12,258 nt of DNA from Candidatus Iainarchaeum sp. (GTDB taxonomy: Archaea > Iainarchaeota > Iainarchaeia > Iainarchaeales > CSSED10-239), in the NCBI GenBank assembly GCA_003559395.1, contig PWLL01000027.1, forward strand, positions 1 through 12,258, in the 5' to 3' direction. Shown in pieces: positions 1-12,258 of the stretch (position 1 is its first letter; each line of letters starts with the position of its first letter). The notes under the pieces are model-generated. The model was given only the letters and a program-made list of their open reading frames with translations, was not told the DNA's origin and did no database searches. A program made the translations under genes and the position numbers.

Positions 1-12
1 AGTTTGTTTTAT

Positions 13-645
13 CTACGAATAACTATATAAGAAAACGCCTCTAAAATCTTTTACTTTTTTATCATTATCAAAAACAGTAACTAACCTATAGTCGTCATTC
101 CAATCTTCCCAAGAAATCAAAACTGGTTTATTTTTTACAAAACCATCTTCTATTGCTTCTTTTAAGTTATCATAATAAGTAACGTGTTCTAGATTAAAAC
201 TATCAACAACATGCTCATCTAAATAAGTGTTTATTTCTATCAAATTTAGTTGAGAGATATCAACGCCGCCATCTATTTTAAAAACTAGAGTATATCCTGA
301 TCGTAGAACTTCTTTTTGTATATTTTTATTTATCTCGTTTATTCTTGCCTTTCTTCCAATCATTCCATAATCTATTTCTTTTAGCCTTAGTTTTTCTAAA
401 ACTTCTCCAGACGAAGAAAACAAGATAGGTTCTATGTTTTTATCTTCTACAAAAGCAAAAACATCTTCTTTCATAGTTAAACAATAGCCTATTTTTTTTG
501 GTTCTGTTTCTTCTAGAGTAAGTGTTTCTTTTGTAGGGTTGTTTATTTCTGTTGGTTCTTCAGAAACATTCACAGATAATCTTATCACTAACACAATTGA
601 TAAAAAAACTAACAAACAAAACAGAACAACAATTATTTTTTTCAT
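13..645 (-). CDS. hypothetical secreted or membrane-anchored protein (N-terminal signal-anchor helix)
   Basis: Uninterrupted 210-aa ORF. The N-terminus MKKIIVVLFCLLVFLSIVLVIRL is a basic stretch followed by a hydrophobic helix. An acidic, Thr/Pro-containing linker and a mixed globular region follow. I recognise no catalytic or family motif. Confidence 0.55.
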   Translation of the reverse strand: MKKIIVVLFCLLVFLSIVLVIRLSVNVSEEPTEINNPTKETLTLEETEPKKIGYCLTMKEDVFAFVEDKNIEPILFSSSGEVLEKLRLKEIDYGMIGRKARINEINKNIQKEVLRSGYTLVFKIDGGVDISQLNLIEINTYLDEHVVDSFNLEHVTYYDNLKEAIEDGFVKNKPVLISWEDWNDDYRLVTVFDNDKKVKDFRGVFLYSYS

Positions 646-714
646 AGTTTTTCTTTTTTATTATCTTTAATATATATAATAGGTTACAAAAAATATATAA
701 AACACAACGAACTT

Positions 715-1752
715 TTACCATCCTGTTTCTTGCAAAAGAGAAGAAATTGATTTCCCAAGATGTATATAACAAATAACTTTTGCAAAATATTCTGAAACAT
801 CAACTTGTTTAAACCAGTCTGTATTTTTTACAAATTCTTCTGAATGATAGACTGCATTAGTTCCAATTACTTTTGTTAAATAATTATTTTTATAAAGATC
901 ATTAAGTCTATCAACACACGGTCCATTAAAAAAAGGAAGAGATGTTGCAAAATATATTTGTTTTGCTCCTTTTTCTTTAAGTATTTTTATTGCATTACAT
1001 AAGGTACCACCAGTATCAACCATATCATCAACTAACAAAACGTCTTTGTCTTTTACATCTCCAATAACAAACATTTTATTAATACAATCTAGTTTAACAT
1101 AGCTTCTTTCTTTATATATAGAAACAAGGTTTAGTTTTAGTTCAGAAGCATATTTTTCTGCTCTTTTTAACCCACCAATATCTGGTGCTGAAACAACTAG
1201 TTTTTCTAAAGAAATGTTTTTTTTAATATGTTTTATTAAATTTTTAAAACCATATAGATTTTCAAAAACACAATTATTAAAAAATCCTGCAATTGCAAGA
1301 TTATGAATATCTAAAGTAATTATGGTGTCTGCTCCTAAATACTCCATTTCTTTTGCAAAAAGCTTTGCTGTGATTCCTTCTCTTCCAACTGATTTGTCTT
1401 GTCTTGAATAAGGATATGTTGGAATAACAACATTTATTCTTTTAGCATCTGATATTCTAGCAGCATTAACAAGTGTTTTTAGTGCCATTACATTATCGTT
1501 TACTGAATATCCAAAAGAAGTATTTGTTACATCTTGAAGAATATATACATCTTTGCCTCTTATAGATTCTAAAATATTTGTTTTTATTTCTGTATTTTTA
1601 AATTGAATTTCTTCTGTTTTTGTAAGGTCTATTTCTTCTAAATTATTTTTTTTTAAATAATTATTTAAATAAGGCAAAATAAGGTTTGCAAAATGTAATC
1701 CGCCTTTACAAGACAATAAACAAATTCCGTTTCCGTTTAGCATAAAAAACAC
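715..1752 (-). CDS. prs: ribose-phosphate pyrophosphokinase (PRPP synthetase)
   Basis: Family motifs are present: VIPTYPYSRQDK (the RQD loop), TLDIHNLAIAGFF (DxH...GFF) and the PRPP-binding loop VLLVDDMVDTGGTL. Length is typical. The real start may be the second ATG at 1743 (MLNGNG...). Confidence 0.9.
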   Translation of the reverse strand: MFFMLNGNGICLLSCKGGLHFANLILPYLNNYLKKNNLEEIDLTKTEEIQFKNTEIKTNILESIRGKDVYILQDVTNTSFGYSVNDNVMALKTLVNAARISDAKRINVVIPTYPYSRQDKSVGREGITAKLFAKEMEYLGADTIITLDIHNLAIAGFFNNCVFENLYGFKNLIKHIKKNISLEKLVVSAPDIGGLKRAEKYASELKLNLVSIYKERSYVKLDCINKMFVIGDVKDKDVLLVDDMVDTGGTLCNAIKILKEKGAKQIYFATSLPFFNGPCVDRLNDLYKNNYLTKVIGTNAVYHSEEFVKNTDWFKQVDVSEYFAKVICYIHLGKSISSLLQETGW

Positions 1753-1820
1753 TTTTTAAAATATTTGATATATTTATAGTATCAATAGATATAAAAGAAT
1801 ATCTTTTAAAAACAAGATTT

Positions 1821-2534
1821 TTAACCAAACATCTTTTCTTTTATCTTTTTTGGTGTAGTGTTTTTATGTTCTGCAATCAATTTTATGTTTGCTTTTAGTT
1901 TTCTTATATCTAATTCTCCTTTAGATCTAGAAAAAACAATTACATGTCCGTTATCATCAACATATTTTCTATGCTTTCCACCACCTTTATAAACATAGCC
2001 TAGTTTTTGTGTTAGAATCTTAGAAAACTCCAAATGTGTTATTGTTGGCAATCCAATACCAATAGATTGATGAGCAATAATTGTTTCTTTTGAAAGTTTT
2101 TTAGGTTTTTTTTGTTTTTCAACTTTTGAGGGTGTGTTATTGTTATGATTATTATTTTTTCTTTTTTTATTATTATCTTGCTCTTGCTTTTCTTTTTTCT
2201 TTCTTAATAGCCATTCTTTTTCTTTTCTTTCTTTTTCTTTTTGTTTTCTTTCTTGTCTTTCTCTTATTTCTACATCTTCGTTTAATTGTTGTTTGATTCT
2301 ATTTATTTCTTTTTTTGAAAATTTTCTTTCTGCTCTTTTTATTTCAATTAGTGTTTGTAGTACTCTTGGATGTGTAGGATCTATTTTAGTTGTGTTTCTA
2401 GACTGATTATAAAAAAAAGCTTTTAATTTTTTTAAAACTTCTGGAGAAATATTTTTTTTATCTTGTTCTATTCGTTTATATAATTCTTGTTTTTTATTTT
2501 CTTTTTTAGGTCTATTTTTATTAACATGTGTCAT
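1821..2534 (-). CDS. Lys/Glu-rich basic protein with C-terminal HicA/YcfA-like domain
   Basis: The track ORF runs to 2654, but its first 40 residues look like read-through of promoter DNA, so I start at ATG 2534 (MTHVNKNRPKK...). The centre is a low-complexity K/E/R/N coiled-coil-like tract. The C-terminus HLEFSKILTQKLGYVYKGGGKHRKYVDDNGHVIVFSRSKGELDIRKLKANIKLI follows the HicA pattern (xxLxKxGF/Y..., G-x-H, short strand, basic helix). The family call is by eye only. Confidence 0.5.
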   Translation of the reverse strand: MTHVNKNRPKKENKKQELYKRIEQDKKNISPEVLKKLKAFFYNQSRNTTKIDPTHPRVLQTLIEIKRAERKFSKKEINRIKQQLNEDVEIRERQERKQKEKERKEKEWLLRKKKEKQEQDNNKKRKNNNHNNNTPSKVEKQKKPKKLSKETIIAHQSIGIGLPTITHLEFSKILTQKLGYVYKGGGKHRKYVDDNGHVIVFSRSKGELDIRKLKANIKLIAEHKNTTPKKIKEKMFG

Positions 2535-2737
2535 AAAATCATCTTTTTTATTATGAGATGCAACTATAATAAAAGAATTACCAAAACAAATATAAAGGTA
2601 TTTAAAATTCCAAAAATATCGCAATCTAAAACACTTATTTTTCAAATCAAGCATATATATTTAAATACTAACAACAATATATTTATTGTTAAAAAAACAA
2701 TCTAACTTGTCAAAAAAATTTAAAAAAACGTGATCAT

Positions 2738-4054
2738 ATGTCTATTTTCAAACCAATACCAAAAAAAGAAGAATTTTCTTTAAAAAAAAACTTAGGCTTA
2801 TTTGAAGCTACGATGGCTGGTGTTGGGTTTATTCTTGGTGCAGGAATATATGTTTTAATTGGTGCTGTTGCAAGTTTTTCTGGCTCAGCAATATGGTTAT
2901 CTTTTATTTTTGCAGGACTTGCAGCAATTGCTTCTGGTTTTAGTTATGCTGAAGTGTCTTCTATGTTTCCTGTTATAGAAAGCGAATATGTGTATGCTAA
3001 AGAAGGCCTTGGTAAGTTTGCTGGATTTTATACATATATTGCAGTTATTCTTGCGTTAACAATTGGTATTGCTGGTGTATCTTTAGGATTTGCTAGTTAT
3101 TTTAAAGAACTATTTGGGTTGCAGAACGTAAAGTTAATAGCTTTTACAGTAATCCTATTCTTTGCAATTGTTAATTGGTGGAGTATAAAAACATCTGCAA
3201 AGTTTGTATTTATTTGCACTTTAGCCTCTATTTTAGGTTTATTAACTATTGTATTTTTAGCATTTTTTACAACATCCACAAACACAAATTATTTAATAAT
3301 GCCTCAAGGATTTTCAGGAGTTGTAAAGGGTGCTTCTTTGATCTTTTTTGCATATCTTGGTTTTGAAGGAATTGTAAAAATGACTGATGAAACTAAAAAT
3401 GCACGAAAAAACATTCCTTTGGCAATTATTCTTTCAATAATAATTTCTACAATTGTTTATATTGCTGTTGCTGTTGCAGCAGTAAGTGTTTTGTCATGGG
3501 AAGTACTTGCTACATCTCAAGCACCTTTAGCAGAGGTTGCTGCAGCAGTTCTAGGAAACAAAGCTTTTGTTTTTTTAGGAATAATTGCATTATTATCTAC
3601 AGCAAACACAATCTTAATGGGGCTTTTGTCTGGATCAAGAAGTTTTTATGGAATTGGGCAGATATTTTACAAACTTAAATGGCTTTCAAAAGTAGGTAAA
3701 AGAAACACGCCTACAAGAGCAATAATCATTACTTTTTTTATTGCAGTTCCTTTTTTATTTTTTGGAAACATATCTACTGTAATTGGTTTTACAAACTTTT
3801 TAATATTTTCAAACTTTATATTAATTAATCTTTCAGCAATAAGACTAAGATACAAACATCCAGACATTATTAGAAAATTTAAAATGCCATTAAACATAAA
3901 ACGATTTCCTTTATTTTCTTTGTTTGGTATATTAATATCATTAGTATTAATTTTTAATCTAGATATGTTACATATTGTTGGTGGAAGTATTATAAGTGTT
4001 ATTATATATATTATATTTGTAATTATTAATCAAAAAACAGGACTACAATACTAA
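2738..4054 (+). CDS. APC-superfamily amino acid/polyamine permease
   Basis: 438 aa with about 12 hydrophobic segments. The N-terminal signature LGLFEATMAGVGFILGAGIYVLIG (GxG-containing TM1) and the FFAYLGFEGI segment are typical of amino acid permeases. Confidence 0.85.
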   Translation: MSIFKPIPKKEEFSLKKNLGLFEATMAGVGFILGAGIYVLIGAVASFSGSAIWLSFIFAGLAAIASGFSYAEVSSMFPVIESEYVYAKEGLGKFAGFYTYIAVILALTIGIAGVSLGFASYFKELFGLQNVKLIAFTVILFFAIVNWWSIKTSAKFVFICTLASILGLLTIVFLAFFTTSTNTNYLIMPQGFSGVVKGASLIFFAYLGFEGIVKMTDETKNARKNIPLAIILSIIISTIVYIAVAVAAVSVLSWEVLATSQAPLAEVAAAVLGNKAFVFLGIIALLSTANTILMGLLSGSRSFYGIGQIFYKLKWLSKVGKRNTPTRAIIITFFIAVPFLFFGNISTVIGFTNFLIFSNFILINLSAIRLRYKHPDIIRKFKMPLNIKRFPLFSLFGILISLVLIFNLDMLHIVGGSIISVIIYIIFVIINQKTGLQY

Positions 4055-4067
4055 AAAGTGTTAAAAT

Positions 4068-4817
4068 ATGGAATTAAAAAACAAAATTGCTTTAATTACT
4101 GGAGCTGCTAGAGGAATAGGTAAAGCAACTGCTTTAGAGTTTGCAAAAGAAGGAGCAAAGTTAATTTTATCTGATATAGATATTGATAATTGCGAATATA
4201 CTTGTGATGAAATAAAAAAACAAGGATATGATGCTATAGCTATAGAATGTGACGTAACTAAAAAGAAAGATGTTGAAAAACTTGTTAAAAAAACCTTAAA
4301 TAGATTTCAAAGAATAGATATTCTTGTAAACTGTGCAAGCGAAGAAATAATAAATCCTTTTTTTGAAATTAAAGAAAATGAGTGGGATTCTATTATTGAT
4401 GTAAACTTAAAAGGAGTTTTTTTAATAACTCAACTTGTTGCTAAGAAAATGGCTTTACAAAAAGAAGGAAAGATAATATCTGTATCTTCTATTGCTGGAA
4501 AAGTAGGATTAACTTATGCTTCTTCTTTTTGTGCAGCAAAAGCAGGAATTATAAATCTTACAAGAGAACTGGCTTTAGAACTTTCTGAATATAGAATAAA
4601 TGTAAATTCTATTGTTTCTGGTGTTTTACCAACAAAAATAACAAACAATATTTTAGAAGATAAAGAAAATAAAGAAGACTTGTTAGCTAACATACCACTA
4701 AAAAGAATAGGAAAACCAGAAGATATTGCAAAAGCAGCTGTGTTTTTAGCTTCTGAAAGAGCAAACTATATTACTGGTCATAACTTGGTCGTAGATGGTG
4801 GTTGGTTAGCGCATTAG
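4068..4817 (+). CDS. classical short-chain dehydrogenase/reductase (FabG-like), catalytic Tyr replaced by Phe
   Basis: The Rossmann motif TGAARGIGKA, catalytic Asn (DVNLKG) and Ser (SVSSIAG) are present. The YxxxK position reads FCAAK (ttt tgt gca gca aaa), and NNAG is replaced by NCAS. The gene starts 13 nt after the permease stop. Confidence 0.85.
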   Translation: MELKNKIALITGAARGIGKATALEFAKEGAKLILSDIDIDNCEYTCDEIKKQGYDAIAIECDVTKKKDVEKLVKKTLNRFQRIDILVNCASEEIINPFFEIKENEWDSIIDVNLKGVFLITQLVAKKMALQKEGKIISVSSIAGKVGLTYASSFCAAKAGIINLTRELALELSEYRINVNSIVSGVLPTKITNNILEDKENKEDLLANIPLKRIGKPEDIAKAAVFLASERANYITGHNLVVDGGWLAH

Positions 4818-4827
4818 GGTGTTTATT

Positions 4828-5577
4828 ATGAAATTAAAAAATAATGTTGCTATAGTAACTGGAGGAGCAAACGGAATTGGAAAAGCAATTGCTTTAGAGT
4901 TTGCTAAACAAGGAGCAAAAGTTGTTATTTGTGATATTGATAAAGTAGCTGGAAAAGAGGTTGTAAATCAAATAGAACGTCTTGGATATAAAGCTATTTT
5001 TGTTAAAGCAGATGTTACTAAAAAAAACGATGTTCAAAGAACTATTAAAAGAACAATAAAAGATTTTGAAAAAATAGACGTATTAATAAATAATGCAGGA
5101 ATATTTATACAAGAGAAAATATCGAAGATTAAAGAAGAAGAATGGGATAATTTAATAAATACAAATCTTAAAGGCATGTATTTGTTTATCTCTTGTATAG
5201 CAGAACACATGATTGAACATAAGAGAGGAAAAATAATTTCAATAGGTTCTATTTTTGGAGAGGTTGGTTATAATAACACTTCTGTTTATTCTGCAGCAAA
5301 CGGAGGAATTATAAGTCTAACTAAGGCAGTTGCTTTAGAACTTGCTCCATACAGAATCAATGTAAATATTGTATCTCCTGGAATCATTGCTACAAAAATG
5401 AATGAAGACGTTTTAACAAATCCAGAACTTAAAAAAAAAATCATCTCCAACATACCTTTAGAGAGAATTGGGATTCCTGAAGAAATTGCAGATGCTGTTG
5501 TTTTTTTAGCATCCAACAGATCTGATTTTATTACAGGTCACAACTTGATTGTTGATGGTGGTTGGACTATACATTAA
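4828..5577 (+). CDS. classical short-chain dehydrogenase/reductase (FabG-like), catalytic Lys replaced by Asn
   Basis: TGGANGIGKA, NNAG, NTNLKG and SIGSIFG are all present. The YxxxK position reads YSAAN (tat tct gca gca aac). I take the start at ATG 4828 (MKLKNN..., colinear with MELKNK of the upstream paralog). AGGGTG lies 6 nt upstream of that ATG. The track's GTG at 4819 is the alternative start. Confidence 0.85.
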   Translation: MKLKNNVAIVTGGANGIGKAIALEFAKQGAKVVICDIDKVAGKEVVNQIERLGYKAIFVKADVTKKNDVQRTIKRTIKDFEKIDVLINNAGIFIQEKISKIKEEEWDNLINTNLKGMYLFISCIAEHMIEHKRGKIISIGSIFGEVGYNNTSVYSAANGGIISLTKAVALELAPYRINVNIVSPGIIATKMNEDVLTNPELKKKIISNIPLERIGIPEEIADAVVFLASNRSDFITGHNLIVDGGWTIH

Positions 5578-5645
5578 TATTGATGTTTTAATTTGTCTAG
5601 TTTAGATATTTACAAAAACAAATCTTTATTTACACTAATAACAGA

Positions 5646-6311
5646 TTATTTTGCATGTATTTTATAAAAATCATGTTTATTTCCTTCAAACCAAGAAAAC
5701 ATATCTCTTCTTAACTTACACATTTGGTTTGTTTCTTTATTATAGAAAACAATTCCTTCAGCAAATATTTTTTCTCCAGTTTTTCTTCTATAATAAAGAC
5801 TCCAAAGATCTTTAAAAATATTACTTACTTTTTCAAAAATATCTTCTGAACTTAGATTTTTATTTTCAATTTCAGTTTCTATAAATTTTGTCCAAAAGTT
5901 ATATGCACATTTTTTTTTAAGATAAGAAAAAGGAACCCATAAAGCTCTTTTTTCATTATATGCGTTATTGTTAATAGAAGGACCAACAAGTTCTCCAAAA
6001 AACTGACCAGTTGTATTTGTTCTAAATAATTCTTTATATAATGAATAGTTTATACCATCAATAAATCTAAAATACTTTTTATGAGATAATATTTCTATTT
6101 TGTTTTTACGATTATAAATATCAATAATTTTATTATTTTCAACAATAACTGAAACATTTGTGCCATCTATTTTTTCTGAAGCTAACACTTTTGTTTTATC
6201 AAATATCCATTCATAAATAGGGTTTATTTTTGAAGTGACTATATATTTATCGTCTATTGTTTCTCTTATAAATGGAGATTCTAGTTTTGGAAAGTCTTTT
6301 ATATTTTTCAT
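5646..6311 (-). CDS. ATP-dependent RNA-ligase-like covalent nucleotidyltransferase (minimal, single domain)
   Basis: Motif I is EKIDGTN (Lys47 would be the adenylylation site). Motif III-like FFGELVG, motif IV-like AEGIVFY and motif V-like CKLRRDMF follow in the correct order. At 221 aa there is no room for an OB or other accessory domain. Confidence 0.65.
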   Translation of the reverse strand: MKNIKDFPKLESPFIRETIDDKYIVTSKINPIYEWIFDKTKVLASEKIDGTNVSVIVENNKIIDIYNRKNKIEILSHKKYFRFIDGINYSLYKELFRTNTTGQFFGELVGPSINNNAYNEKRALWVPFSYLKKKCAYNFWTKFIETEIENKNLSSEDIFEKVSNIFKDLWSLYYRRKTGEKIFAEGIVFYNKETNQMCKLRRDMFSWFEGNKHDFYKIHAK

Positions 6312-6418
6312 AATCGTCCGTCCTACAAATAATACAGAACCAAAATAAATATAAATAGAGGAGATTATTAAAAAATTGTGATTGGTAATTATGTTATATC
6401 AAAAATTTAAACACATAT

Positions 6419-6490
6419 TGAATATAAATTCATAACCATTTAAAAACCTTTTGCTTCTATAATATGTACATAATGAATACTAATTCATTA
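6419..6490. promoter_or_regulatory. pair of operator-like palindromes TGAAT-N4-ATTCA upstream of the DUF5320/DUF134 operon
   Basis: TGAAT-ATAA-ATTCA lies at 6419-6432. TGAAT-ACTA-ATTCA lies at 6474-6487 and extends to 8-bp arms TAATGAAT/ATTCATTA at 6471-6490. The centres are 55 bp apart. The second site ends 2 nt before the GGAG (6493-6496) of the first gene. Confidence 0.35.
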
Positions 6491-6505
6491 TAGGAGATGA
6501 TATAT

Positions 6506-6637
6506 ATGCCAGCAAAAGATAAAACAGGTCCAAGAAGTGGATCAAGAGGCCCAAGAGATGGAAGAGGGCAAGGTAAAGGAAGAGCACCAGGAAAAGGTGT
6601 TGGTAAAAAACAAGGTGGACAAAAAGGAAATTGTTAA
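6506..6637 (+). CDS. DUF5320-like Gly/Arg/Lys-rich small protein (43 aa)
   Basis: Not in the ORF track because it is under 60 aa. GGAG lies 9 nt upstream of the ATG. The product is MPAKDKTGPRSGSRGPRDGRGQGKGRAPGKGVGKKQGGQKGNC. The N-terminus MPxxDxTGP...G.GP..GRG matches my memory of the DUF5320 signature and the paralog at 6826. Confidence 0.65.
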   Translation: MPAKDKTGPRSGSRGPRDGRGQGKGRAPGKGVGKKQGGQKGNC

Positions 6638-6665
6638 ATTTTCGTATAGTTAAGGAGAAAAAAAC

Positions 6666-6842
6666 ATGTCAAAAGATTACTTACTTATACTAATAGTTAT
6701 TTTAGGTTTAATTACCTTGTTTTTTTTTCCTAAACCTCAAAGTAATTTTTTACTTTATCTTTCAACAATCTTTTATTACTTTATTGTAATAAAGGTTTTA
6801 TTTTTAAAAAAAGGAGGTAGACAATATGCCAGCAAGAGATAG
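6666..6842 (+). CDS. 58-aa predicted two-helix membrane peptide
   Basis: Not in the ORF track. AAGGAG (6652-6657) lies 8 nt upstream of the ATG. The product is MSKDYLLILIVILGLITLFFFPKPQSNFLLYLSTIFYYFIVIKVLFLKKGGRQYASKR: two hydrophobic stretches separated by PKPQSN. The 3' end overlaps the RBS and start of the next gene. Confidence 0.5.
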   Translation: MSKDYLLILIVILGLITLFFFPKPQSNFLLYLSTIFYYFIVIKVLFLKKGGRQYASKR

Positions 6843-7005
6843 AACTGGACCAGAAGGAAAAGGACCATTAACAGGAAGAGGCTTTGGAGCTTGTAACCCA
6901 AATAACCAAAATCAAAGACTTTCACAAAGAGGGGTTGGTTTTGGAAGAGGTTGTAGACAAGGAAGAGGTTATGGATTTAGAAATCAAAACACAAATGAGG
7001 AATAA
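6826..7005 (+). CDS. DUF5320 family small protein (59 aa)
   Basis: Not in the ORF track. AAGGAGG (6811-6817) lies 8 nt upstream of the ATG. The product is MPARDRTGPEGKGPLTGRGFGACNPNNQNQRLSQRGVGFGRGCRQGRGYGFRNQNTNEE. MPxxDxTGPxGxGPxTGRGxGxC is the DUF5320 N-terminal signature as I recall it. The stop lies 3 nt before the DUF134 start. Confidence 0.75.
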   Translation: MPARDRTGPEGKGPLTGRGFGACNPNNQNQRLSQRGVGFGRGCRQGRGYGFRNQNTNEE

Positions 7006-7008
7006 CAT

Positions 7009-7293
7009 ATGCCAAGAAGAAAATGCCACAGAAATGTTCGTTTTAGTCCAGATTGTTTGTTTTTTAAACCTGCAGGTATAAAACTAAGAGATATGCAAAA
7101 TATTGTATTATACCCTGACGAATTAGAAGCAATAAGACTAAAAGACTTTTTAGGTTTAGAACAAAAAAAATGCGCAATAAAAATGAACATTTCACAACCA
7201 ACTTTTCATAGAATACTTTTAAGTGCAAGAAAGAAAGTTTCTGATTCTTTAGTAAATGGAAAAGCAATAAAAATAGAAAAAATAAAACAATAA
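7009..7293 (+). CDS. DUF134/UPF0251 family predicted DNA-binding (sigma-70 region 4-like HTH) protein
   Basis: The N-terminus MPRRKCHRNVRFSPDCLFFKPAG matches the family, followed by LYPDELEAIRLKDFLGLEQKKCAIKMNISQPTFHRILLSARKKV (helix-turn-helix). This matches the DUF134 pattern (MPRP.k.R.v...P....FkP.G, then a sigma-like HTH). Confidence 0.8.
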   Translation: MPRRKCHRNVRFSPDCLFFKPAGIKLRDMQNIVLYPDELEAIRLKDFLGLEQKKCAIKMNISQPTFHRILLSARKKVSDSLVNGKAIKIEKIKQ

Positions 7294-7722
7294 AACAAAT
7301 TTAAAAAAAAATTAAAATGGAGTGAAAAACATAAAATTATTAATTACTTTAAATAATAATAAACAATTAGATTCAGATTTAAGTGAAGTTATAGAAAATA
7401 TAAATAATTTAGAAGACATTACTGATGATTGTGAACACTAAAAATAAATTTTAACTAAATTATAATCAGAACTTAAAAAATTAGATGGTCTTTGAAAATC
7501 AAGCCCTGTATTGTTAAATACTTTTTTTAAAGAGCGATAATAATTATTTCTATTAACAAAGAGAATTATTTTTTCCATAAAATCATATTACAAAAATCTG
7601 CCCTTGCTCACGGCAACGACTGAGAGATAAATAACATATTATTTGTATAGAAATAGATTTAAATATATATTAATAAAACTACGCTTCTTGTAAAAATTAA
7701 ACCTAAAGATAAAAAAATTCAT

Positions 7723-8790
7723 CTAATATTTTTTTAAAATAACCTCTAAATAACTTAAAAACTGTTTAGTATCTAAAAAATAGTTTGGGTACGCTTTTTT
7801 AAGATCTTGTATATTATCAGCACTAACTAAAACAACATCATATTCATTTTTATTATATATTTTCTTTTCTGCTTGAGAATAAGCTAAAAGTGCTTCTTTT
7901 TCTTGTTTTTTTGTAAATGCAGAAATATTTAATCTTTCAAGTACTGTATCTAATTCTAAAAGATAAAAATGTGTGTTTTTCTTATTTTTAAAATTATCAA
8001 AATATTTTACAGATTCTGTCCAATGTTTCATTTTTTTTCTAACTTGTAATTCTTTTTCTTTTTGCTTAATTTGCAAATAAAGTTGTTTTTCATTTTGAGG
8101 AGTTTGAGAAACAATTGGAGATTTTTCTAATCTTGCAAATGCTGAACTTACTAATTTAAAAAAAGTTTTCCAATTTTCTTCTCCTTGATTAGATTTAATT
8201 GCTTGTCTTGTAAAAAAGTCTACAGTTTCTACAGCAGTTGCCCAAAGATGTTGTAGTTTAGATCTTATTTGAACTTCTACTAACAAACCATTATATTCAT
8301 CTCTACCTTTATCACTTTTATATCTATATATTAAATGTATACTTCTATAACCGTCTTCTTTAGGACTTGAAATATAGTCTTTTTCATTTATTTTTTTGTG
8401 TTTTAAGTCTCCATTATGATAATACTTGCTATATAATTCTCTTACTTGAGTTATGTTAGGCATAACTACTCTACACCCTGCAATATCTTGCATTTGAGTT
8501 AATTTCATTGTTGGTTTATTATCATTATATTTTCGTTTTAATTTTTTAATTATTGAAGACACTCTTTTTAATCTTTGAGCAGATACTGCATTTTTATCTA
8601 TTTTTTCAGAAACTCTTTTTAATCTTTTTTTAAACACATTCATAGGATAGCTATGCATTGCTTTCCAACTACTAACAATTTCTAAAGCGTCATTTATTTT
8701 TTCTATAGATTGATTTTTATCATCAGATAGATTTTTAGCTGAATTATTTATTTGTGATTTTGATGCTTTTTTAACATTTAATTGATTCAT
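7723..8790 (-). CDS. RelA/SpoT-domain nucleotidyltransferase (stand-alone synthetase-fold protein with uncharacterised C-terminal half)
   Basis: Synthetase-fold motifs occur in order: RLKRVSSIIKKLKRK, MQDIAGCRVV, DGYRSIHLIY and LVEVQIRSKLQHLWATAVE. There is no HD hydrolase, TGS or ACT region. I start at ATG 8790 (MNQLNVKK...). The track's GTG 8838 and ATG 8829 are alternatives that run into the upstream repeat motif. Confidence 0.85.
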   Translation of the reverse strand: MNQLNVKKASKSQINNSAKNLSDDKNQSIEKINDALEIVSSWKAMHSYPMNVFKKRLKRVSEKIDKNAVSAQRLKRVSSIIKKLKRKYNDNKPTMKLTQMQDIAGCRVVMPNITQVRELYSKYYHNGDLKHKKINEKDYISSPKEDGYRSIHLIYRYKSDKGRDEYNGLLVEVQIRSKLQHLWATAVETVDFFTRQAIKSNQGEENWKTFFKLVSSAFARLEKSPIVSQTPQNEKQLYLQIKQKEKELQVRKKMKHWTESVKYFDNFKNKKNTHFYLLELDTVLERLNISAFTKKQEKEALLAYSQAEKKIYNKNEYDVVLVSADNIQDLKKAYPNYFLDTKQFLSYLEVILKKY

Positions 8791-8826
8791 AATATAATAT
8801 AAGCGCCATTTATTTTTTAAACATAT

Positions 8827-9007
8827 CATTTTGCGCACAAATTAGTTAAAATAAAGTTAAATTGCGCAACAAATAAAACAAAACTAAATTTGTTCTAAAG
8901 CCAATAAATATAAAGATTTACAACACACTGCAACAAAATTTAAAAAAACAATTTAAAAAAAACACCATTTTGCGCGTTTTTATTAAAATTACACGGCATT
9001 TTGCGCA
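8827..9007. promoter_or_regulatory. array of four GC-rich TTGCGC boxes (two pairs, 31-bp spacing within each pair) upstream of the RelA/SpoT gene
   Basis: The boxes are CATTTTGCGCA at 8827-8837, the perfect 8-bp palindrome TTGCGCAA at 8862-8869, CATTTTGCGC at 8966-8975 and CATTTTGCGCA at 8997-9007. TTGCGC starts at 8831, 8862, 8970 and 9001, giving 31 bp within each pair. The surrounding DNA is almost pure A/T. Confidence 0.5.
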
Positions 9008-9089
9008 GAACCAAAAACTATTAATTTCAAATAGACCAAAATAACCTACACAATTGAACCTAAGATTAAAAGCATTCTTTTAATTTAAA

Positions 9090-9641
9090 TTATATTTTAA
9101 TATTCACTTTTTTTTTATGCCCATCTTCAACAACAAACAATTCTTTTGTATTATATTTTAACATTTTTGCAATAATATTATACGGTATTTGTTCTATTCT
9201 TGTATTATATAACATAACAGAATCATTAAAATATTCTCTTCTATCAGCAATCATATTTTCAATAACTGAAACTCTTTTTTGAAGATTCAAAAAATTTTTG
9301 TTTGCTTTTATTTCTGGATATTTTTCAACAGTCATAAAAAAATTAGATATTAAACTATGTGCATTTTCATTAACTTTTGCAACATCATGAATATCTTTTG
9401 CATGTCCATAATTTGTTCTTATTTTTGTAACATCACTTAATAGTTTTTTTTCATATTTTGAATATCCTTTAACGGTATTAATTAGATTAGGTATTTCATC
9501 AAATCTTTGTTTTAATAAAACATCTATATTACACCACGCTTTTTCTATATTATTTTTTAATCTTATTAAACTATTATAAATTGTAACAAAACAAAACAAA
9601 AGGATTATAAAAATCAACAACAAAATAAAATATAAATACAT
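9090..9641 (-). CDS. lemA: LemA family membrane protein
   Basis: An N-terminal TM helix is followed by the family signature YNSLIRLKNNIEKAWCNIDVLLKQRFDEIPNLINTVKGYSKYEKKLLSDVTKIR. Length (183 aa) is typical. The gene starts 6 nt after the upstream gene's stop. Confidence 0.9.
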   Translation of the reverse strand: MYLYFILLLIFIILLFCFVTIYNSLIRLKNNIEKAWCNIDVLLKQRFDEIPNLINTVKGYSKYEKKLLSDVTKIRTNYGHAKDIHDVAKVNENAHSLISNFFMTVEKYPEIKANKNFLNLQKRVSVIENMIADRREYFNDSVMLYNTRIEQIPYNIIAKMLKYNTKELFVVEDGHKKKVNIKI

Positions 9642-9647
9642 AATAAA

Positions 9648-10448
9648 TCACAATACAAAAAACAAAATCGCCCCAACAACACTTAACATAAAACCAAATA
9701 TAAAAGCCAAAATCACTTTTTTTTTAAATATTTTAATTAATTCTTTTTCAGTTTTATCAGAAATCACAAATGTTTTTTCATGGTTTCCTTTTTTTATTAT
9801 ATGTTTATCTTTTTCTTTAACACCAACAGTTCCTATCACATAGACATTATCATTCAATGCCACATATTTTTCTATAATTCTTATATCCCCATTCATTACT
9901 GCTAAAGGAAATTTTGGTCTACCATTAACAATTTCTAGTTCTTTTAAATTATCTAATATAAATTTATTTTGTTTATCTTTATTAAAAGAAAATGCAGTTT
10001 TTATATTATAAATACTTTTATTAATATTAAAACCACAAGAAAAATAACTAGCATATTTTACATTTAAAAGAAATTGTGCCTTTTTTGGACTGATTATTAT
10101 TTCTCCCGTGCCATCATCTACAATAAATTCAACACTATTTTTTTTACTTTCTAATTTACGCCAATGTGACCCGTTTTTTGATGAAATAAACCTTTCTTTC
10201 AAATATTCATAACAAACACACTCTTTTTTAGAAATTGGTGTTTTTAAAAGTTCATTTGATTTGACAGACCCATAAATTTCTGACAAACCCATTGCTACGG
10301 ATCTTATCTTAGATGTCGGAGTATCTTTAATAAGATATTTGACTTTATTTTTTTTATAAGCATCATATAAAAATACAATACCACTACATAGTAAAACTAA
10401 AGGAAAAAACATTTTTGCTATATTTCCTATCAAAATTGTGCTTATCAT
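9648..10448 (-). CDS. two-TM membrane protein with GIDE-like (MUL1 inter-membrane domain-like) architecture
   Basis: There is an N-terminal TM (FFPLVLLCSGIVFLY) and a C-terminal TM (VILAFIFGFMLSVVGAILFFVL). The segment after TM1, TPTSKIRSVAMGLSEIYGSVKSNELLKTPISKKECVCYEY, fits the prokaryotic GIDE pattern as I remember it. GAGG lies 9 nt upstream of the ATG. The family call is from memory and was not searched. Confidence 0.6.
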   Translation of the reverse strand: MISTILIGNIAKMFFPLVLLCSGIVFLYDAYKKNKVKYLIKDTPTSKIRSVAMGLSEIYGSVKSNELLKTPISKKECVCYEYLKERFISSKNGSHWRKLESKKNSVEFIVDDGTGEIIISPKKAQFLLNVKYASYFSCGFNINKSIYNIKTAFSFNKDKQNKFILDNLKELEIVNGRPKFPLAVMNGDIRIIEKYVALNDNVYVIGTVGVKEKDKHIIKKGNHEKTFVISDKTEKELIKIFKKKVILAFIFGFMLSVVGAILFFVL

Positions 10449-10753
10449 TTATTATAACCTCATAATCATTTTTTGATTTTTCTTCATAAATTGCAAAATA
10501 AACTTTATACAACACCAGTTAATCTTTATAACATTTATAATAATATAGGTATTATCTAATATTTAAAACTTTAGTTTTATAACCAATAACATGTTTTCAG
10601 TTCTATTTTTTTAAATCTTTAATAAAGTCTTTTAAGATATAATCCTCACACTCCTTAAATAAATATTAACTTACTTATATAAAATAATATATTAACAAAA
10701 TTTAAACCATTTCTGTTCTCATTTAAACCACATTTGTCTTTAATAACGCAAAT

Positions 10754-11557
10754 TTAATTATATAACTTTTCAACACGTTCTATAAGTTTATTTATAAAAA
10801 CAGAAGAACTCCAAAGATCATTATGTCCTTTTCCTTCAATAAGCACATATTCTTTATTATTACTTGGAATTTTTTCATACAGCCTTTTTGAAAACCTAGA
10901 AGGAATTACTAAATCCTGATCTCCATGAAAAATAACAACCTTATTTTCATAATTTTTTAACCATTCAACATTATCGTATCTTTCTTTTAAAATTAATGAT
11001 ACAGGATAAATAACAAATTTTGATTGTGCTACATCAATCAATCTAGAAAATGGAGTAATAAGAATTAAGTTATTTACTTTTCCTATATAGCTATGATAGC
11101 TTGCAGCACCAGCGCCAATACTTTCTCCATAGATTGTTACCTCTGTAAAGGAATTATCTTGAATAAAATCATTTATGTTTTGAACATCTTTAAGTATTAG
11201 TTTTTTTGATGGGTTCCTATTATCGTTTGAATAACCTGCATACTCAACAAACACTAACGAAGCATTAAAACGTTCAAAAATTAATCTAAGATAACTTCTA
11301 TCACAAGTTGACCCTGCATTTCCATGATAAAACACAATTACTTTTTCTGTAGACGCGTGCTTAAAATAAAATCTAGTTCCATTATAGTTTATTTTTTGAT
11401 AATCTTTAAAACTACTACATTGTTCAAAATTTTGATCATTTGGGTGGTATAACATAGATCTTTGATTAAAATACAAAAAAACGCCTAACAAAATATATAT
11501 TATAAAAATAAAAAGAAGTGTGTTAAAAAATTTAGATTGATTTTTTATTATTTTCAT
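10754..11557 (-). CDS. membrane-anchored alpha/beta hydrolase (BEM46/ABHD13-like serine hydrolase)
   Basis: An N-terminal TM (LLFIFIIYILLGVFLYF) precedes the HGNAGS oxyanion-region motif. The nucleophile elbow is GESIGAG. Asp is in HGDQDLVIP and His in GKGHNDL. I start at ATG 11557; the track begins at a TTG at 11593. Confidence 0.8.
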   Translation of the reverse strand: MKIIKNQSKFFNTLLFIFIIYILLGVFLYFNQRSMLYHPNDQNFEQCSSFKDYQKINYNGTRFYFKHASTEKVIVFYHGNAGSTCDRSYLRLIFERFNASLVFVEYAGYSNDNRNPSKKLILKDVQNINDFIQDNSFTEVTIYGESIGAGAASYHSYIGKVNNLILITPFSRLIDVAQSKFVIYPVSLILKERYDNVEWLKNYENKVVIFHGDQDLVIPSRFSKRLYEKIPSNNKEYVLIEGKGHNDLWSSSVFINKLIERVEKLYN

Positions 11558-11712
11558 AAAATCAATATTAAGTATACTTACCGTTGTTCGCAAACAATGG
11601 TAGGGAGATTAGTAAAATATTATATGTTTAGAAACATATTTAAACATAGAAGTTAAAGCACCTTTTTAAGCTTCTGTTGGGAATTGAACTTAAAGTAAAA
11701 AGCGCTCCTTTT

Positions 11713-11941
11713 CATAACAATTCTAAAAACTCTTCTCTTGTAATACCTAAATCTTTCTTTATTATCTTATTAAGAAGTCCAAAACCAATCTTTTCAGAAC
11801 CATGATCAGGAACAATTATTTTTTGATGATTATTTTTATTTATAAATGTCATATGACTACCAGTATGTTTTAATACTCATAGCCCAACTTAGAGATAATT
11901 TTACCTACTTATTTTCCTGTAAGTAAAGGTAAACTTGACAA
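11713..11941 (-). pseudogene. hicA: hicA-family toxin gene, disrupted (in-frame TAA plus 1-nt frameshift)
   Basis: My hand translation directly after the hicB stop gives (TTG)LSSLPLLTGK-TAA-VGKIISKLGYEY. A second stop follows at 11870-11872. The reading frame must then shift by one base at about 11873 to continue LKHTGSHMTFINKNNHQKIIVPDHGSEKIGFGLLNKIIKKDLGITREEFLELL-TGA (stop 11713-11715). Joined, this is a full-length HicA pattern (LP.L.GKE....L.KLG...GSH...vP.H). The TAA at 11909-11911 sits where HicA usually has Glu (GAA). Confidence 0.7.
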
Positions 11942-11944
11942 AAA

Positions 11945-12151
11945 TCACACCTTTATTTGTTGCACTGCAATAAAAGAAGATATTTCTTCTTTTGATTTAG
12001 TATCAACTTTATATGCTTTTATTGCTTCTTTTGTTCTTTCTATTAATTGGTCCATAGTTTTTGCTTGAGTGTGACAACCTGGCAATCCAATTACTTCTGA
12101 AACATACCAACCATCTTTATCTTTTTCAATAATAATATTATACTTTTCCAT
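11945..12151 (-). CDS. hicB: HicB-like antitoxin (UPF0150, short form without DNA-binding domain)
   Basis: IIIEKDKDGWYVSEVIGLPGCHTQAKTMDQLIERTKEAIKAY is the classic HicB N-terminal signature (DG.y.a.vP.lPGc.tqG.T.eEa..n..EAi). AGGTG lies 9 nt upstream of the ATG. It is followed at once by the hicA remnant. Confidence 0.8.
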   Translation of the reverse strand: MEKYNIIIEKDKDGWYVSEVIGLPGCHTQAKTMDQLIERTKEAIKAYKVDTKSKEEISSFIAVQQIKV

Positions 12152-12258
12152 ATTTTATTTCACCTAATATATTATAGAAATAAACAAAATTTAAAGCTTT
12201 GTTTTTTAAAAGATAGTAGTTAAAAACTCATATTCCAATCCACAAGTAAGATTATAAC

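Follow-up and report, generated by a model that had tools for sequence, protein, structure and literature searches.

A full-length CapRel homologue with a clade-specific repeated promoter element in a probable DPANN archaeon

What could be the role of a gene that stands alone in the genome of an archaeon and encodes a RelA/SpoT domain followed by a long C-terminal extension? This question is raised by a minus-strand open reading frame (ORF) at positions 7723-8838 of contig PWLL01000027.1 (assembly GCA_003559395.1, Candidatus Iainarchaeum sp.), whose positions 1 to 12,258, the whole stretch of DNA that was analysed, are referred to below as the window. A first-pass annotation, made from the sequence alone, had suggested that the product is a single-polypeptide, self-inhibited toxSAS of the CapRel type, possibly from a lineage with no characterised member. 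Full-length homology to CapRel-SJ46, conservation of the catalytic and autoinhibitory residues and a predicted topology like that of CapRel support the first part of this suggestion, and the assignment of the host as a probable DPANN archaeon agrees with the second. By homology and structure prediction, the gene is a new archaeal addition to the fused CapRel proteins already known. What is new beyond this is a repeated promoter element, specific to the clade and essentially confined to the region upstream of this gene.

Homology to fused CapRel and predicted architecture

In phmmer searches of the PDB, the product matched CapRel-SJ46 (7ztb, 9erv) at E 4e-48 over ORF residues 23-364, and RelQ and RelP at about 1e-13 to 1e-9 over the N-terminal half only; no PDB toxSAS besides CapRel was retrieved at an E-value of 1 or better. 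The structure 7ZTB is that of CapRel-SJ46, for which functionally tested residues have been given (PMC9712102, Nature 2022). The PADLOC model PDC-S33, a purely computational family listed as a single-gene phage defence candidate, gave a full-length match to the query (E 9e-118) and was matched as well by CapRel-SJ46 (7e-87) and by diverse family representatives. Since CapRel-SJ46 matches this model as the query does, PDC-S33 can be identified, by homology, with the fused CapRel family; a literature search found no paper in which PDC-S33 is mentioned.

Pairwise alignment with CapRel-SJ46 gave 35.5% identity, and the query shares nine of the ten CapRel residues whose function has been tested: A77, R79, R116, Y155, V338, L339, A351, Y352 and Y355 of CapRel-SJ46 correspond to A71, R73, R107, Y148, V320, L321, A333, Y334 and Y337, respectively. 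The tenth, A341, is replaced by S323, serine being the commonest residue at this position among 150 diverse representatives of the family. Throughout the same set R73 and Y148 are invariant, R107 is found in 149 proteins and the YPNY motif in 133-143. The basic RLKR...KKLKRK stretch is also retained. Taken as a whole, the alignments identify the gene as encoding a full-length homologue of fused CapRel.

Pfam found RelA_SpoT (PF04607) alone, at ORF aa 88-201 (E 6e-20), and none of the HD, TGS and ACT/RRM domains of the long RelA/SpoT-family (RSH) proteins Rel, RelA and SpoT, in agreement with the first-pass annotation, which had noted the lack of hydrolase, TGS and ACT domains. The replacement of the E-x-x-H...YK motif after WA, also noted there, is borne out by the alignment: the EH...YK that follows WAT in RelQ has given way to AVETVDFF in the query and to SLEIIDTL in CapRel-SJ46. 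The protein does not fall with RelQ/RelP, its score against the NCBIfam model YjbM being 63.8 bits vs an equivalog cutoff of 320 bits, and the query has 355 aa with a CapRel-type C-terminus, as compared with about 200-230 aa for the single-domain RelQ and RelP.

The ORF runs for 371 aa from a GTG at 8838 and contains, on the minus strand, all of the peptide strings quoted in the first-pass annotation. The listed start codon, however, had to be moved. Translation truly begins with the ATG at 8790, which is M17 of the ORF and yields a 355-aa protein, because the database copy of the protein (P0001) is of this length and, among the 120 closest relatives, nearly all have 350-370 aa, because the PADLOC and PDB alignments start downstream of this ATG, because the TATA-like box described below is placed with respect to it, and because the GTG at 8838 sits within a conserved promoter box (GTG CGC AAA ATG). 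The features of the gene, with residues numbered from the ATG, are as follows.

7723-8790, minus strand: CapRel-like coding sequence, 355 aa and a TAG stop (length of the database copy; placement of the TATA-like box)
8791-8838, minus strand: spurious 16-codon N-terminal extension, with the GTG inside the proximal promoter box (ORF listing; promoter-box comparison)
8671-8790, minus strand: N-terminal helices, aa 1-40, where conservation is lowest in the protein (alignment; AlphaFold model)
8176-8670, minus strand: toxSYNTH (RelA/SpoT nucleotide pyrophosphokinase) domain, aa 41-205 (Pfam, PDB matches, residue mapping, invariance)
8572-8574, minus strand: R73, in toxSYNTH (residue mapping to CapRel-SJ46)
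8470-8472, minus strand: R107, in toxSYNTH (residue mapping to CapRel-SJ46)
8347-8349, minus strand: G-loop Y148, in toxSYNTH (residue mapping to CapRel-SJ46)
7987-8175, minus strand: linker/anchor region of three helices, aa 206-268, corresponding to alpha7-alpha9 in CapRel-SJ46 (models and BLASTP)
7822-7986, minus strand: sensor subdomain resembling a pseudo-zinc finger, aa 269-323, with beta-beta-alpha-beta at aa 273-323, fastest-evolving (topology, variability, PDB match)
7726-7821, minus strand: C-terminal anchor helices with the YXXY motif as well as interface residues V320, L321, S323 and A333 (residue mapping, family alignment)
7780-7791, minus strand: putative YXXY autoinhibition motif, YPNY, aa 334-337 (residue mapping)

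The C-terminal half, in which the first-pass annotation had recognised nothing, corresponds to the known antitoxin region of CapRel. Compared alone by BLASTP, aa 206-355 of the query and aa 213-373 of CapRel-SJ46 matched at E 2e-14. A full-length AlphaFold model (pLDDT 85.7, pTM 0.84) had CapRel as its top PDB match in Foldseek (E 8e-23, TM-score 0.67-0.70, 362 columns), and when the C-terminal half was modelled by itself (pLDDT 87), three CapRel chains were the sole significant PDB matches, at E 3e-6 to 1e-5, the next match being at E 0.05. The comparison of a predicted C-terminal structure with CapRel, which had been proposed as a check, thus gave CapRel chains as the only significant matches, and the C-terminus matched no oligomerisation domain of small alarmone synthetases. 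The elements of the model follow one another as three helices, beta-beta-alpha-beta, and helix-YPNY-helix, and the same order has been published for the anchors, the pseudo-zinc-finger domain (pseudo-ZFD) and the C-terminal extension of CapRel (PMC9712102). The C-terminal region of about 150 aa is, on the alignments, homologous to the antitoxin/sensor region of CapRel-SJ46. RelQ and RelP structures superposed on the N-terminal half of the model, with a TM-score of about 0.7 normalised to the target, and a fold search of BFVD gave partial RelA/SpoT-domain matches only.

The sensor subdomain is the fastest-evolving region of the protein, as in CapRel. Identity across the whole family is 0.24 in the sensor vs 0.48 in toxSYNTH; in the wider clade to which the query belongs, sensor identity is 0.50 where that of toxSYNTH is 0.70, and 0.44 where it is 0.60. 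An early impression that the sensor was unusually conserved in this clade was rejected, because in the wider clade the sensor evolves fast, as is usual; the apparent conservation was a sampling artefact, since only the 120 most similar proteins had been analysed. The same pattern of variability has been reported for CapRel-SJ46 vs CapRel-Ebc (PMC9712102). In addition, two metagenome-assembled genomes (MAGs) contain two divergent copies each, with identities in the sensor vs toxSYNTH of 0.50 vs 0.63 (L013/L067) and 0.33 vs 0.60 (L036/L088). This divergence between co-resident copies suggests that a single genome may hold a repertoire of differing specificities.

The closest system for comparison is CapRel-SJ46 itself, from Salmonella phage SJ46 (7ZTB, 9ERV). 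The two proteins belong to the same length class (373 aa in CapRel-SJ46, 355 aa in the query), align from end to end, have the same domain order and predicted C-terminal topology, are encoded by partnerless single genes, and are both most variable in the sensor. They differ in origin, CapRel-SJ46 coming from an enterobacterial prophage and the query from a probable DPANN archaeon, and in the length of the sensor segment, which has 55 aa in the query and 66 aa in CapRel-SJ46; with a family median of 54 aa, CapRel-SJ46 is the long outlier. The query also has an archaeal-type promoter and clade-specific boxes, whereas CapRel-SJ46 has no such boxes. According to the description in PMC9712102, on which this part of the comparison is based, PhRel/ATphRel of mycobacteriophage Phrann (gp29/gp30) and the unfused actinobacterial CapRel/ATcapRel have a related toxSYNTH and an antitoxin homologous to CapRel's C-terminal region, but are made of two genes, while the query is fused. 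RelQ and RelP (5DEC, 5DED, 6EWZ and others) share the N-terminal catalytic fold with the query but lack the C-terminal antitoxin region, and the EH...YK motif of RelQ is not present in the query.

A repeated promoter element upstream of the gene

The spacer upstream of the gene measures 251 bp from the GTG and 299 bp (8791-9089) from the ATG at 8790, has a GC content of 22%, and contains three copies of GCGCAAAATG and one of GCGCAATTT. These are instances of an element that recurs across the archaeal clade, in which the gene is preceded by two to four AACCGCGCAAAA direct repeats that form pairs with a spacing of about 32 bp. The promoter features of the window are the following.

8814-8821, minus strand: TATA-like box TTTAAAAA, 31 nt before the ATG (comparison with homologous loci)
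8831-8867, minus strand: proximal box pair, spaced 31 bp, with its GCGCAA cores at 8831-8836 and 8862-8867 (the 8831-8836 core lies 9 nt upstream of the TATA-like box)
8970-9006, minus strand: distal box pair GCGCAAAATG, with cores at 8970-8975 and 9001-9006, 31 bp apart (108 bp upstream of the proximal pair)

When the 300 nt upstream of the homologues were searched for enriched 6-mers, the window itself being excluded, GCGCAA ranked first (31.5-fold, p ~6e-188), with 172 copies spread over 60 of 75 loci, and the other top 6-mers were overlapping shifts of AACCGCGCAAAA. The copies are in sense orientation and paired 31-33 bp apart, with larger spacings of about 53, 84, 98 and 108 bp. Within 320 bp upstream of the gene, 50 sense-strand pairs spaced 30-34 bp were counted; only one pair occurred elsewhere in the 1.44 Mb searched on both strands, and this too was upstream of the gene. 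The proximal box is separated from a TATA-like octamer by 8-10 nt in 42 of 44 loci, and in 40 of the 44 the distance from the start of the octamer to the ATG is 29-30 nt. Such a geometry of box, TATA and ATG is as expected for a leaderless archaeal mRNA, and it fits a gene with an archaeal-type TATA promoter placed for a leaderless transcript.

The boxes are absent upstream of CapRel-SJ46 and of 77 more distant IMG/VR homologues (33-44% identical), while the single IMG/VR copy with 55% identity has two. Nucleotide homology between the cassettes extends from 45-137 nt upstream of the ATG through the stop codon, and farther upstream only the boxes persist. We infer that the boxes, which move with the gene between hosts, are regulator-binding sites that would set the expression of a potentially lethal protein.

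An RNA element in the upstream spacer was also considered and rejected, as there was no Rfam match and the leader folded no better than its shuffles (z +1.08). Terminator and sigma-70 scans gave nothing beyond shuffle expectation. Among the 80 loci listed by a metagenome-wide scan for paired boxes, which was meant to reveal a regulon, 75 had a GC content of at least 45% and none had a CapRel-like gene, the matches being due to chance in GC-rich contigs. One unrelated metagenome contig (L184, 52% GC) contains, at 2880-3750, a long tandem array whose 11-nt unit, GCCGCGCAAAT, is similar to the box; this is most likely a coincidental satellite caught by the pattern search.

Clade, host and genomic context

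The 120 closest proteins are 62-84% identical to the query and mostly 350-360 aa long, and those with names belong to DPANN archaea and, in a few cases, to Patescibacteria. When GTDB species genomes were scanned with peptide patterns of the clade, 403 loci were detected. Among the best 80 of these, 73 are archaeal (Woese-, Nano-, Pace-, Aenigmat-, Micr-, Iain- and Nanohaloarchaea, together with Methanosarcinales, Methanoperedens and Nitrososphaera) and seven bacterial (two Patescibacteria-group MAGs, one Dojkabacteria, two MAGs labelled only as 'bacterium' and two labelled as Gammaproteobacteria). By these relationships, the gene belongs to a large and coherent clade that is mostly archaeal and mainly DPANN. 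Within the whole family, which at 50% clustering comprises 1,436 representatives at E <= 1e-30, this clade accounts for one or two. RSH proteins have been reported to be rare in archaea (PMC3153485), and earlier surveys list CapRel in bacteria only; in addition, a literature search found no paper on an archaeal CapRel or on CapRel in DPANN archaea.

The host is probably a DPANN archaeon, as judged from the phosphoribosyl pyrophosphate (PRPP) synthetase encoded on the contig, which is closest to Candidatus Iainarchaeum (69%) and then to sequences labelled archaeon, Nanoarchaeota and Woesearchaeota, its bacterial relatives reaching at most 47%. It should be noted that this call relies only on the named nearest relatives, because the PRPP synthetase is of class I and the other genes of the window show both Shine-Dalgarno-like and TATA-like signals. 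The PRPP synthetase gene (715-1752, minus strand) encodes the class I (bacterial/eukaryotic) type and not the archaeal class III, matching the human and Bacillus subtilis enzymes at about E 1e-54 to 1e-50 and archaeal class III structures at E 1e-23 or weaker.

A viral origin of the clade is unsupported, as IMG/VR holds mainly distant (33-44%) prophage-type CapRels and one copy with 55% identity. The latter, the sole close homologue in the viral collection (L089, GVMAG-S-1041346-124), is on a contig binned as a giant-virus MAG, which may be a mis-binned archaeal contig. A separate observation concerns the Nitrososphaera provirus Pro-Nvie1 (L002), where a gene at 1917-2549, located between the portal and the capsid/protease genes, has a product of about 210 aa whose N-terminal domain is RelA/SpoT-like; this protein matches only the catalytic part of the query, with 33% identity over aa 50-184.

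The first-pass annotation had described the gene as monocistronic, with 429 bp of non-coding DNA downstream and about 250-300 bp upstream, and without an adjacent antitoxin-like gene, and the measured spacers and the comparison of homologous loci are in full accord with this description. When 290 flanking proteins from 84 loci were clustered, 251 clusters were obtained, none of them present in more than four loci, and contexts were wholly different even among copies with 82% identity. No conserved adjacent antitoxin or activator (NAP) gene, as in the bicistronic toxSAS modules FaRel, FaRel2, PhRel and PhRel2 or in PANGU GRel/Pag1B, was found in the 84 loci. A hidden small antitoxin was also rejected, since the spacers contain only low-complexity ORFs of 22-46 aa, and tblastx of the flanks detected neither a conserved small ORF nor any protein-level conservation. 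The neighbours in homologous loci include housekeeping genes (ribosomal L10, enolase, SRP54, gyrase B) and scattered candidates for defence or mobile functions (AbiEii, RhuM, PDC-S01/S04/S13, Fic, Bro-N, ResIII), and therefore the gene lies outside any tight defence island.

Downstream, the gene is followed by a spacer that falls outside the conserved unit.

7294-7722, no strand assigned: 429-bp spacer between convergent genes, unconserved among homologous loci

This spacer is very AT-rich, except for a single GC-rich island at 7598-7617 on the minus strand, about 105 nt past the stop codon, which has the sequence GTTGCCGTGAGCAAGGGCAG with a T run after it; the island was not called by the terminator scan and is not conserved in homologous loci. 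Beyond the spacer, at 6826-7293 (plus strand), adjacent DUF5320 and DUF134 genes are convergent with the CapRel-like gene, the first of them being preceded by a strong Shine-Dalgarno-like AGGAGG. On the other side, upstream and on the same strand as the CapRel-like gene, a LemA family gene is followed at once by a gene for a GIDE (E3-ligase-like) membrane protein (9090-10448, minus strand), in an arrangement that looks like an operon. Near the contig end, a 68-aa ORF at 11945-12151 (minus strand) is HicB antitoxin-like (Pfam E 3e-7); elsewhere in the window, a lysine-rich protein of 277 aa, encoded at 1821-2654 (minus strand), has a weak, sub-threshold match to HicA toxins at its C-terminus (E 0.003). 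These two may be further toxin-antitoxin remnants on the contig.

Proposed function and its alternatives

The reading that we favour, with a probability of about 0.68, is that the gene product is a CapRel-family toxin-antitoxin, fused into a single chain, which belongs to a probable DPANN archaeon and acts as CapRel-SJ46 does. By homology with the latter, the resting protein would be closed, with its C-terminal region folded back on the catalytic sheet and the YPNY turn inserted between R73 and R107, and ATP binding would be blocked. A foreign protein, most likely viral, would bind the sensor subdomain and hold the protein open. The open enzyme would move pyrophosphate from ATP to the 3' CCA ends of tRNAs, which is the activity of CapRel-SJ46 (PMC9712102); translation would then stop and the infection would be aborted.

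Some observations weigh against this reading. Identity to the sole characterised relatives is only about 35%, and the residues L280 and L307, which contact the trigger in CapRel-SJ46, are opposite alignment gaps and have no counterpart in the query. The C-terminal half reaches a TM-score to CapRel of only 0.47-0.49, with an rmsd of 7-8 A, probably owing to helix packing and a hinge that differ between a model of the isolated half and the open crystal form; for the full-length model the rmsd is about 10 A, and therefore the relative domain placement differs from that of the open crystal form. Nor do the surroundings form a clear defence island, and many of the neighbours are housekeeping genes. 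Finally, we know of no virus of these archaea that could supply the trigger.

The same architecture might serve another chemistry, i.e. the production of a toxic nucleotide such as (pp)pApp, or of an alarmone as by FaRel or GRel/Pag1B. This would be conceivable, considering that toxSAS of a common fold divide between tRNA pyrophosphorylation and nucleotide synthesis and that the query is only 35.5% identical to CapRel-SJ46, but it appears quite improbable: the tRNA-modifying CapRel-SJ46 is by far the closest characterised relative (E 4e-48 vs about 1e-13 for alarmone synthetases) and the only toxSAS that was retrieved from the PDB, the acceptor motif EH...YK of RelQ is missing from both proteins, and the basic stretch is kept. 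We also regard as unlikely, although with some points in its favour, a CapRel-type switch that has no antiviral role and responds to a cellular protein, such as an addiction or stress module or a weapon between a DPANN episymbiont and its host. The frequent housekeeping flanks and the absence of a tight defence island agree with such a switch, the spread of the clade across many DPANN lineages and a few bacteria is consistent with a selfish mobile cassette, and activation of CapRel-Ebc already requires the host factor FtsZ (PMC13423816). On the other hand, the family is the PADLOC defence candidate PDC-S33, its characterised members protect against phages (PMC9712102), some of the neighbours are themselves defence or mobile candidates (AbiEii, RhuM, PDC-S01/S04/S13, Fic, ResIII), and the sensor diverges fastest, and most between paralogues in one genome, as expected from an arms race. 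Least probable by far is an ordinary small alarmone synthetase of the RelQ/RelP type with an additional oligomerisation tail. The Pfam RelA_SpoT match, the weak match to YjbM and the superposition of RelQ and RelP structures on the N-terminal half would speak for it; nevertheless, a housekeeping alarmone synthetase is effectively refuted by the sub-cutoff YjbM score (63.8 vs 320 bits), by the missing acceptor-binding motif, and by the 150 C-terminal aa, which show homology to the CapRel antitoxin and contain the YXXY motif.

A distinct proposal concerns the upstream repeats, which abut the BRE/TATA region and could be operators bound by the CapRel-like protein itself, with autoregulation as in classical type II toxin-antitoxin loci; otherwise, a host transcription factor might bind them, or they might be a passive feature of the promoter. 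The boxes travel with the single gene into unrelated contexts, with no other gene co-transferred, and persist even on a clearly bacterial contig (L007); the remaining ~0.7 Mb of sampled host DNA lacks the paired signature; spacings of about 32, 53 and 84 bp fit whole helical turns, with the boxes on the same face of the DNA; and the published pseudo-ZFD resembles the fold of a zinc-finger transcription factor (PMC9712102). We nonetheless consider autoregulation doubtful, given that DNA-binding activity is known for no CapRel and that autoregulation is nowhere mentioned in the 2024 CapRel paper. Moreover, the motif core is invariant across loci, 16 of 79 loci are without two or more copies of the box, and CapRel-SJ46 and 77 more distant homologues lack boxes altogether. 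If the proposal were true, this would be a fused toxin-antitoxin with a transcriptional autoregulatory loop that crosses archaeal phyla and extends into bacteria; both this layer of control and a DNA-binding role of the zinc-finger-like sensor would be additions to what has been described for any CapRel.

Although none of these findings amounts to a new principle, CapRel is among the best-understood prokaryotic immune proteins that sense a viral protein directly, and, to the best of our knowledge, all of its characterised members come from enterobacteria and their phages. The clade described here retains every catalytic and autoinhibitory residue while its sensor diversifies. Considering that RSH proteins are rare in archaea and that, as far as we are aware, very little is known about the viruses of DPANN archaea, the clade could therefore be used as bait for the archaeal virus proteins that are sensed. 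It would also make it possible to ask whether tRNA-CCA pyrophosphorylation serves as abortive infection in archaea, and its promoter boxes provide a concrete regulatory element of a toxic single-gene system.

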